A stretch of DNA of 6,137 nucleotides from a plasmid. This document shows, one piece after another, positions 1-3,000 of the stretch. Every line of letters starts with the position of its first letter. Position 1 is the first letter of the stretch. The stretch is from the NCBI RefSeq assembly GCF_055900595.2, contig NZ_PP320291.1. One strand, written 5' to 3'. The position numbers are program-made.

Positions 1-3000
1 GACGCGAGAATCGCCGCTAGAAATAAAGCAGAAAACACCGAAGACTAGCTGAACGCACATTTCGACAATGATGTGGACTACATCGTTGATCATAACTTCA
101 CGGTGCGCTAGCTTCCATAGAAGCCAACTAATAACAAGGAGTTAGCATGTCTGATTCAGATTTCAAAAATAGCCCTGAGTATGATGACTGGATTGAATCT
201 GGTGGTAGAGATGAAGATTACAGTTACTACTATGAAAAATGGCATAGAAGAACTCAACGATAATTCCCGCCGATAAAAGGAAAGTGATAGCACTTTCCTT
301 TTTTTATAACTGACGGCCGTTTTGTTCCGTCAACGCTCAAAGCCTCGCGATCTGTCTCCACGCTCCCAGCCTCGATCCAGTGCCTTCAGGAGCCTGTGTT
401 CCCTTTCTTTTGCAACTTGCTGACTAGCCCGGTCAAGCCCTCCAGCTGCTTGCTCAAGCCGTCCACTTGCTGCGTTAAGCCGTTCACCTGCCTCGTCAAT
501 CGCTCTGCTGCTGCCCTGCTGATCTCGGCCTCTTGTTTGGTGCTCTCGTACATGCTCGCCAAGTTCGCGTAGCTTTCCTGCCATGCCTTGTGCTGCTGCT
601 CGTATGCGCTCTGCAAAGCCTCGAACGCGCAGAGCAATTCCCGCTCCAATCCCGTCATTTAGTACCCCTTCGGCACGATCCAATAGGTATCCTTCCCCCA
701 AACGGTTGGATTGGGGTCGGAGATCTGCACGCAAAGGTGCTCCAATTTCTTCCCGCACTGGGTCAGCTTTAGCTTGCCGCCCTTCTCTGCCAAGGCTTGG
801 AGAGTGGCTTGCCGCTCCGCTATCAATTCCCCCTGATACCAGAGGATCCCGCTCGTTGCGCTCAAGAACAGGACGATGCTGACCAGCATCCAGATCCACG
901 TTTTGAGCAACAGCCAGCCCATTTTCTGGCTGTGCTCGGCAATAGCGGCGCTCATTTTCTCCTCGCTTGATTTCAACGCCCCGGAGATAGCTTTCTCGTG
1001 CCTCGTGAATTCTTCGGTCAGACGCTTCTCGATAGCGTTGGCCTGCTGCTTCGAGCTCTGCTCGAAGTCCTTCGCCATGTCTAAAATCTTGCTCATACAG
1101 CACCCCCTTTAATCGGATGTTCCGCCCCCCGTCCGGGTCGGCAATGCTCAGGCTGTTTTTGGTTTCGCGTACCACGCTGAAACCCGCACCCTGCAAGGCT
1201 TTGCGCACATCATCGCGGCTCTGGATCTCCCCTGCTCCGGCCATGCGTAAAAGCCCGTCTGTAATGGCCTGAGCGGCCTCCTTGTGCCCCCTCGGCAAAT
1301 CCTTTGGCGTGATAACGGCCTGACGGTTTAACGGATCGTCCGGGTCGTGCAATTTCAGCTCCCCGTTTACCACGGTTCGCCACGCATCGAGGCGCGGATT
1401 GTCGGCCTTGTGGAAGTAGGGTTGCAGCCGCTTCCCGCTCTGCAATTCGATGTTCGGGACTACAAAATTCAGCTCCAGCCGCCCCTTGTCGCGGTGCTCT
1501 ACCCACAAAACAGCGTACTGGTTGCCCTCCAGTCCGGGCAGGAGCGCCTTTTCAAAGTCGCTCATCAGCTTGTCCTTGGTCGCCCTGGGTAAATCAGCCT
1601 CGGCAAACGACAGAACGCCAGAGGTGTATTTTTTGGCGTAGGGACTGGAATCAATCAGGGCTTCAATCACCGCAGGGTTGCCCCGGTCGAGCGTTGCGCC
1701 TTCCCGGTTCCCGTCACGGCCCAACAAGTAGCCAACAGGCCCGGAGCCCCGGCCTACCCCACGGTTATGGAATTTGATGATCATGGTGCAGTTCCTCCAG
1801 CTCGCGGCCTATAGCGGACAGCTCCGCTATGATGCGCAGCCGATCCAACGGCCCCCACTCCCCGGAATTAACGCGCCGGGCGATCTGGTTCAGGTTGTTG
1901 CCCATTCCGGCCAACTGCCGCAAGAGCGCCGGATCTACGGTAGGCGCCGGCGTTCGGCGCTGGGGTTGCGCAACACCGAGACATTGCTCCCGCATCCACT
2001 CCGCCAGTTGGGCCTTGGGGCAGAGCTCCCGCAGGCGCTCAAGCTCCGCATCTGAGACCCGGATCTTGATAGAGCGGAGGCGCTTTAACGGCTGGCCAGC
2101 CATGCAGAGGCCTCCGCTAAGGCGTCCTCATAGAGGCTATCGAGTAGCGTCTGGAGCGCCTTTTCATCCCGAAAATCGCAGTGCTCCGGCAAGGGGAAAA
2201 CACCCCCGCCGACCTCTTCGCCGTTCTCCAGCAAACGCAGATTCCAGCCCCCGCCAAGACCGAGAGTGCGGGGGGTGATTTCGTAGTCGTATTCCGTTGT
2301 TGTGGGTTCGTCACTTACCATAGCTAACACCTCATCGGTGGAAATTTTTCCATTGATATAATCTTCAAGTAGAATTTTGAATTCATCGGTTATGGCCTCC
2401 CCCTCTAGTTGGAAACTAGAAATAACGCCATTGACTGCCTTCCTTCTCGAATCTTTCTCTATCTGTGTTGTTGACATAGGGCCTCGTCCATTCTCCAGAG
2501 CCAAGAAGCCACCGCGCAGACCGTCCCGAAGGGGCGGATCGAGCGGGGGCCACAGGGGGTTTCGGGGGGCGTAGCACCCCTGAACAAGGCCACAGAGGCC
2601 CGAGACCGCGAAGCAGGTAGAGGGGCCTCTGTGTAGCCTTGCTTAGTACATTATTCAACCATGGGCGGGATACTGCAAGCCCTAGAGCAAGATCAAGGGA
2701 AAGAGCGGCTCCGTGGATAACTGCTGCCGCCCACACCCCCGAAAAAACAGGGGGGCGATGGACGGACAGGCGCAGTTGTCCACCTCGCCAAAGATCCGCG
2801 CTAAAAGGATTTTTTAAGGCTAAAAGACAAGAGCGCAGGAACCCCCTAAAGGGGGCTATTATCTGATAAGGCTTGTTTCGATCACGGACGATCACGCTTT
2901 AGGTAAACGCTCACCGTACTGGGGGAGATTTGAAGATCGTCCGCTATATCGCGGTTGGTGTACCCCTGAGCCTTAAGCCGCAGAACCTCCGGCAATAGAT

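Follow-up and report, generated by a model that had tools for sequence, protein, structure and literature searches.

Varsaki et al. 2003 are said to have placed the ColE1 cut at CTGG|CTTA, the bar marking the nick. Within MOBP, the ColE1 relaxase MbeA is placed in the HEN sub-family (PMC12857230), and the ColE1 cleavage site falls inside CTGGCTTA (PMC5703827). Plasmid pOXA-232 and its ColKP3 relatives carry OXA-232 and OXA-181 carbapenemases worldwide, and how a 6-kb plasmid of this kind moves between strains is debated. Surveys of ColKP3 plasmids with oriTfinder returned no origin of transfer (oriT; PMC9807924), and one survey called such a plasmid non-mobile owing to the absence of an oriTfinder oriT (PMC10011171). 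Conjugation of ColKP3 plasmids failed in several clinical papers and vesicle-mediated transfer has been proposed (PMC10810626, PMC12444185), with the transfer route described as unclear in the paper that puts vesicles forward (PMC10810626), while co-transfer of a ColKP3 plasmid with an IncI2 plasmid has also been reported (PMC12444185).

The stretch of DNA analysed here (the window, 6137 bases) is a nearly complete pOXA-232-type ColKP3 plasmid. Positions 2450-2900 match 290 PLSDB records at 99.3% identity, mostly 6141-bp Klebsiella plasmids, and differ from NZ_CP079142.1 solely by three single-base deletions, all in homopolymer runs. The G-run at 2564-2569 is 1 nt shorter in the window than in the reference plasmids, which is probably a sequencing error. 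The reading frames of the relaxase, mobC, mbeB and mbeD are all intact (Table 1), the mobC frame being annotated as MobC in NZ_CP079142.1. As in ColE1, mobC lies upstream of a relaxase gene in which mbeB and mbeD are nested, these accessory genes being recognised by their Pfam domains. Over its N-terminal 234 aa the relaxase shares 60% identity with MbeA, the relaxase of the ColE1 plasmid (E 1e-109), and it retains both the catalytic tyrosine motif (Y19, in the context GPVGYLLG) and an H-x6-E-x-N motif III (H97/E104/N106, WVEHRDKGRLELN). The two plasmids differ in replicon, which is ColE2-like with a Rep protein in the window and of the RNAI/RNAII type in ColE1, and in the gene between oriT and mobC, which is rop in ColE1 and a VbhA-like reading frame in the window.

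Table 1. Features of the window discussed in the text
Feature	Position	Strand	Basis or detail
mbeD-like gene, nested in relaxase gene	386-658	-	Pfam MbeD_MobD PF04899, E 3e-20
mbeB-like gene, nested in relaxase gene	659-1096	-	Pfam MbeB_N PF04837, E 1e-17
Relaxase, MbeA-like, HEN type, intact, 484 aa	330-1784	-	Pfam PF03432
mobC, ribbon-helix-helix relaxosome accessory protein	1765-2103	-	Pfam MobC PF05713 (E 7.7e-14), NikA-like PF21983
VbhA-domain reading frame	2085-2504	-	
oriT as bounded by the family model, ColE1/MOBP5-HEN type	2544-2657	+	Covariance model R1
Upstream G/C hairpin, TTCGGGG...CCCC-T-GAA	2561-2584	+	In all aligned origins; also in single-strand fold
nic hairpin, 57 nt	2585-2641	+	Outer arms CAAGGC 2585-2590 / GCCTTG 2636-2641; inner arms 2591-2601 / 2623-2633
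Predicted nic core CTTG|CTTA (CTTGCTTA)	2638-2645	+	Aligned to ColE1 CTGG|CTTA (model alignment, motif-anchored comparison)
GGGATACTGCAAG, earlier proposed nic core	2667-2679	+	Judged to lie outside the nick site
ColE2-like Rep protein	2882-3829	-	
OXA-48-family beta-lactamase	4763-5560	-	

Between the mob operon and rep lies an intergenic region (2505-2881) with no annotation across the oriT in RefSeq E. coli copies, and a literature search of limited scope found no paper placing the ColKP3 oriT at 2544-2657. An earlier note on this DNA had proposed that the region ahead of the mob operon is an oriT, and this is borne out by an independent family model. The model (R1) is a covariance model of 21 origins from other clades, with both nic-hairpin helices modelled; the window, its near-identical relatives, the group of Aeromonas and Enterobacter kobei plasmids and one further relative (L038) were left out of it. 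With filters off it has a single match in the window, 2544-2657 (+), scoring 76.8 bits (E 7.1e-19) against 8.3 bits for the runner-up, and its alignment pairs CUGG|CUUA in the model with CUUG|CUUA in the window at 2638-2645. We conclude, with a probability of roughly 80%, that this segment is the oriT of the pOXA-232-type ColKP3 plasmid, a member of the ColE1 (MOBP5/MOB-HEN) family composed of two adjacent hairpins, the short G/C one and then the long one, with the core CTTG|CTTA straddling the 3' foot of the latter. Its membership of the family is evident in DNA sequence and encoded proteins alike, while its nicking and mobilisation are predicted by homology.

A sensitive blastn search of 2505-2720 against PLSDB recovered diverged homologues in plasmids of Aeromonas, Enterobacter kobei and Halomonas. 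These distant homologues (small MOB-HEN plasmids, among them pK520-NR, pSTW0522-60-4 and pHaKG2_2; 72-81% DNA identity, relaxases 60-73% identical to that of the window) align only over positions 2555-2653, a span that takes in both hairpins and the CTTGCTTA core but ends ahead of GGGATACTGCAAG. All of these origins share the loop motif GCGAAGC with the window; the core CCTTG|CTTAG is common to the window and the Aeromonas/E. kobei group, whereas Halomonas has CTGG. Their stems are shorter than in the window or otherwise unlike it, the changes being compensated, and on the 3' side of the nick similarity is lost within about 10-40 nt. A layout of the form GGGG-T-N-TCGGGG...CCCC-T-GA-N'-C-M-A-G...CAC[variable stem-loop]GTG-T-R-N-N-C-T-K-G|CTTA, with its two hairpins and CTKG|CTTA core, is common to Halomonas, Aeromonas, Yersinia, Acinetobacter, ColE1-like and ColKP3-like plasmids.

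The window and the ColE1/pMB1 oriT (bom; MbeA, MOBP5) share the CMAG...CAC / GTGT...CTKG|CTTA arrangement, an upstream G/C hairpin (GTCGGGGCGCAGCCCTGAC in ColE1, TTCGGGGGGCGTAGCACCCCTGAA in the window) and a nicked strand antisense to the mob genes. They differ in the inner stem, which in the window has 11 bp and a 21-nt loop and in ColE1 consists only of CAC/GTG; the long-stem form is the usual one outside the ColE1 group. As in ColE1-type origins, the inverted repeat of the window lies directly 5' of the predicted nick and follows the conserved G/C hairpin. This repeat was described in the earlier note as 10 bp with a 23-nt loop (CACAGAGGCC/GGCCTCTGTG); the repeat is real, although it is better described as 11 perfectly complementary base pairs (CACAGAGGCCC and GGGCCTCTGTG) spaced 21 nt apart. 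When the window was shuffled 1000 times with dinucleotides preserved, only 46 of the shuffles held a perfect 11-bp repeat of any kind with 3-40 nt in its loop (mean 0.064 per shuffle); the window itself has three such sites, and the repeat at 2591-2601/2623-2633 exceeds chance.

Folded as single-stranded DNA, positions 2560-2660 reach -27.2 kcal/mol compared to -13.4 +/- 2.5 for shuffled sequences (z = -5.5), none of 200 of which was as stable. In this fold T2634 and A2635 are bulged between the inner and outer arms of the nic hairpin, and G2641 is its final paired base. The helix of the upstream G/C hairpin, which is absent from the covariance model, is paired in 98.4% of cells of the family alignment, and its outer pair covaries (T-A in 20 origins, A-T in six, G-C in four, with one exception).

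This layout was read from the region upstream of relaxase homologues (46-100% identical), taken on the strand antisense to the relaxase. One genome per species was also scanned with a DNA pattern (CCTGANCNAG followed after 16-46 nt by GTGTNNNCTNGCTNA), which returned 120 stretches. Together with the earlier loci these made 134, of which 63 had a relaxase homologue or the G-motif; the 71 with neither are chance matches, chromosomal in location, and serve as controls and not as family members. One locus (L134) that passed the loose G-motif filter but had no relaxase was treated as a false positive. The cryptic plasmid of Neisseria gonorrhoeae (L011), whose relaxase is 55% identical by tblastn, gave no clear match by motif or model (E <= 0.001) and was left out of the comparison. 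An ordinary MAFFT alignment of ColE1 to the window clade put the nick region of ColE1 in the wrong place, and motif-anchored extraction and the covariance model were used instead.

In every locus having both the motif and a relaxase homologue (45 of 45) the relaxase gene runs antisense to the strand bearing the motif. At the positions left free by the scanning pattern (CNAG...CTNG), all 28 distinct genuine origins are complementary, with A/T in 10 and C/G in 18, compared to Watson-Crick complementarity in 19 of the 71 chance matches. The T variant, CTTG, occurs in 10 of the 28 and is always accompanied by a compensating A upstream; in the window, position -2 relative to nic is changed from G to T compared to ColE1 and is offset by a C-to-A change in the opposite arm, at 2586. 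In a tree of the relaxases, origins of the CTTG type belong to two distinct clades, one of Acinetobacter plasmids and one containing the window and Aeromonas, the latter nested among CTGG types. At least two compensated events are thereby implied, although the switch is supported by about two independent events and not by many. One locus in the tree (L005) has a disrupted relaxase gene and a long branch.

Pairing extends over the rest of the nic hairpin. In a MAFFT alignment unfitted to structure, 90.6% of cells pair compared to 80.0 +/- 1.6% after shuffling (none of 500 shuffles reached the observed value), although this control ignores kinship, and related sequences can inflate covariation statistics, so that the pairing figures show selection for base pairing but give no probability. 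When partners in this alignment are slid by 1-3 columns pairing falls to at most 45.7%, and six pairs of the hairpin change on both sides. In the model-based alignment of 32 origins, 92.9% of cells pair. A compensated G/C swap within the inner arms is also found in a close relative carrying GES-5/GES-1 (L014).

The CTTGCTTA octamer matches the ColE1 core CTGG|CTTA at seven of eight bases. By itself the 8-mer core pattern is weak evidence, since it matches the window twice compared to 0.5 matches expected; the second match, at 5569-5576, lacks supporting context. The predicted nick is the G2641|C2642 bond on the + strand, at the 3' foot of the hairpin, a position transferred by alignment from ColE1, in which the split inside CTGGCTTA reportedly falls between G and C. 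With the nick on the + strand and the mob genes on the - strand, the mob genes would be the last to enter the recipient, as the earlier note had suggested; its placing of the repeat 5' of nic is likewise supported, the nicked strand being the + strand. The same orientation is seen in a ColE1-type plasmid of 6647 bp (L006), in which GTGTATACTGGCTTAAC and the genes for mobC and the relaxase are on opposite strands; there GTGTATACTGGCTTAACC occupies 1219-1242, opposite mobC (1633-1956) and the relaxase gene.

The nic core proposed in the earlier note, GGGATACTG|CAAG, was regarded there as a degenerate RP4/ColE1-like core and lies some 30-40 nt downstream of the repeat. This motif is on the correct strand and 3' of the repeat, and direct comparison shows that it has the 6-mer ATACTG in common with ColE1 TATACTGG; nevertheless, we consider it very improbable that the nick lies there. 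It falls outside the sole significant match of the family model and beyond the conserved block that the window has in common with relatives from Aeromonas, Halomonas, Acinetobacter, Yersinia and ColE1, and GGGATACTGCAAG itself is not conserved in relatives. The nearest diverged relatives (Aeromonas, E. kobei and L038) have GGATTTTGAGGG where the window has GGGATACTGCAAG, nothing is alignable there in Halomonas, and the 3' half of the motif, CAAG, does not fit CTTA. Comparison with ColE1 oriT sequences, which the earlier note had recommended, upholds the region as an oriT of the family but places the core at 2638-2645, adjoining the hairpin and 26 nt upstream of GGGATACTGCAAG, which starts 33 nt past the repeat and not about 25. 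The strong divergence of the nic core that had been considered is likewise not seen, since the core differs from that of ColE1 by one base, compensated in the hairpin.

The likeness of GGGATACTGCAAG to the RP4 core was also at chance level. The motif has two mismatches to YATCCTGY, and 12 other sites in the window have one at most, compared to 15.1 expected, so the resemblance carries no information. The core CTATCCTG|C, which had been attributed to RP4 and ColE1 together, is that of RP4; the ColE1 site is the one within CTGGCTTA. The window does share with the RP4/IncP oriT (MOBP1) a repeat 5' of the nick, a relaxase of the HUH superfamily and a ribbon-helix-helix accessory protein. However, no site with one mismatch or fewer to YATCCTGY lies on the + strand beside the repeat, the region has no above-chance match to the RP4 core (YATCCTG|Y), and the relaxase of the window has the HEN motif, not the three-histidine motif (PMC12857230).

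A different location has been proposed in print, namely the repeat AAAAGGAAAGTG..CACTTTCCTTTT at 274-302, by the 3' end of the relaxase gene, which was described as oriT-like (PMC9807924). It is a perfect 12-bp inverted repeat and is near the relaxase gene, but it has no family-model match and no nic-like core beside it, and its place is past the end of the relaxase gene, in the gap between two reading frames that converge on it, 147-263 (+) and 330-1784 (-). Read from the sequence, the repeat is followed by a T-run in the layout of a terminator, although a terminator scan of 100-420 did not flag it under the criteria used. We think there is hardly any chance that this repeat is the oriT.

It is also conceivable that the hairpins at 2544-2657 are purely regulatory, as a mob operator or attenuator or a palindrome bound by MobC, and that the plasmid has no working oriT but a relic of one. 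Overlap between oriTs and mob promoters is common, yet a scan for promoters and terminators found no sigma-70-like promoter in 2400-2950 and no T-tailed terminator or other signal at the hairpin. The frequent failure of ColKP3 plasmids to conjugate would fit a relic (PMC10810626, PMC12444185), but failed matings may merely reflect the lack of a compatible helper, and one paper saw such a plasmid transferred together with an IncI2 plasmid (PMC12444185), which bears on mobilisation indirectly. Moreover, every element of the family is intact, as are the reading frames noted above, and the compensated changes indicate continuing selection, which argues against a relic. We therefore regard a purely regulatory or relic role as improbable, though less so than either of the alternative locations, and retain the reading of 2544-2657 as a ColE1-type oriT.

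From homology and established relaxase biology, transfer from this oriT may be pictured as follows. The HEN-type relaxase and MobC, whose genes lie on the - strand directly left of the 2544-2657 region, would assemble there, and the relaxase would cut the + strand at G2641|C2642 and remain bound to the 5' end at C2642. A helper plasmid would supply the coupling protein and the secretion system by which the + strand is then exported 5' to 3', with the side carrying the ColE2-type ori and rep leading. The mob genes and hairpins would enter last, and the hairpin and rebuilt nic core would allow termination and re-ligation.

The pairing of CTTG with CAAG next to nic, as judged from covariation, suggests cleavage at the hairpin's foot. 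A more general and quite tentative proposal, which we consider more likely wrong than right, is that in MOB-HEN plasmids the CTKG 5' of the nick stays paired with a CMAG about 20-60 nt upstream, so that the relaxase would act where double-stranded DNA meets single-stranded DNA at the foot of an extruded hairpin, and not some bases further on in a single-stranded stretch. The compensated change between G and T at nic -2 might then define two specificity classes, CTGG (ColE1-like) and CTTG (ColKP3, Aeromonas and some Acinetobacter plasmids). If this is true, such classes could restrict cross-mobilisation among co-resident small plasmids.

The 2544-2657 element, although unannotated, is thus just what would be expected of the ColE1 oriT family; for a clinically important plasmid it amounts to a useful annotation fix, and biologically it is unsurprising. 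Its exact coordinates can now be used for mutational tests and database annotation. Since the ColE1-type oriT is complete and kept by selection, and no member of the relaxosome gene set is missing, helper-dependent conjugative mobilisation becomes the default expectation for pOXA-232 and its ColKP3 relatives.

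The minus-strand sequence just downstream of rep bears a close likeness to the ColE2/ColE3 minimal origin (AAGCCTTATCAGATAACAGCGCCC...), which would place the candidate oriV and oriT within a single 380-bp intergenic region. Positions 2839-2885 of the window are common to an Aeromonas plasmid (H20) at 95.7%. The space between oriT and mobC holds an ORF whose product contains a VbhA antitoxin domain, with no partner toxin gene evident for it; at this position two close relatives, L013 and L014, instead have a shorter 219-nt hypothetical gene, while ColE1 has rop.

Further features of the window
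Feature	Position	Strand	Remarks
Reading frame with VbhA antitoxin domain	2085-2504	-	Pfam PF18495, E 1.9e-07
Candidate oriV, AAGCCTTATCAGATAATAGCCCCCTTTAGGGGG	~2843-2876	-	just downstream of rep (2882-3829)
Perfect short-loop inverted repeats	274-302; 4553-4582		T/A runs follow or flank each
Homopolymer runs	2564-2569; 2736-2740; 2842-2846		each 1 base short of reference pOXA-232 plasmids

The two perfect short-loop inverted repeats besides that of oriT look like bidirectional terminators, and the first of these is the one labelled oriT-like in PMC9807924. The shortened homopolymer runs, together with a total length of 6137 bases compared to 6141 in the reference pOXA-232 plasmids, look like long-read sequencing error. 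The G-tract within the upstream hairpin of oriT is one of the three.

The DNA-pattern scan also recovered ColE1-family oriTs, often with relaxase genes, on short contigs (L015, L018, L036, L038, L042, L078, L084 and others) assigned to unlikely hosts, namely Streptomyces, Cutibacterium, Flagellimonas, Streptococcus and Negativicutes, with Candidatus Moraniibacteriota and Paceibacterota MAGs as further unlikely sources. Contamination by vector or enterobacterial DNA, or wrong binning of plasmid contigs, probably accounts for these cases. The 4207 bp cryptic plasmid of Neisseria gonorrhoeae (L011) encodes MobC and a relaxase with 55% identity across residues 1-201. Neither motif nor the covariance model of the family found a recognisable ColE1-type oriT in it, perhaps because the origin has diverged too far or lies elsewhere.

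Head-to-tail dimers of the 6.1-kb plasmid have been deposited, both among Klebsiella records of 12.27-12.28 kb and from E. coli J53 (H166, NZ_CP195071.1, 12273 bp), which suggests that the plasmid multimerises. J53 is a standard mating recipient strain. The record from this strain suggests that the plasmid was moved into it in the laboratory, by some route.

The 3573 bp plasmid L013 (NZ_CP058203.1), from a wastewater Enterobacter roggenkampii, shares its oriT and an identical relaxase N-terminus with the window and has a Rep gene, but lacks a beta-lactamase. The bases straight after the nick differ (CTTAATGC compared to CTTAGTAC in the window). It may represent a bare backbone ancestral to the OXA-232/181 plasmids. 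In plasmid pCZ862_GES1_GES5 of Enterobacter cloacae (L014, NZ_CP073313.1), GES-5 and GES-1 are found in a class 1 integron. Since its mob/oriT module is the same as that of the window (relaxase 99% identical), carbapenemases have been acquired more than once by this common mobilisation backbone.
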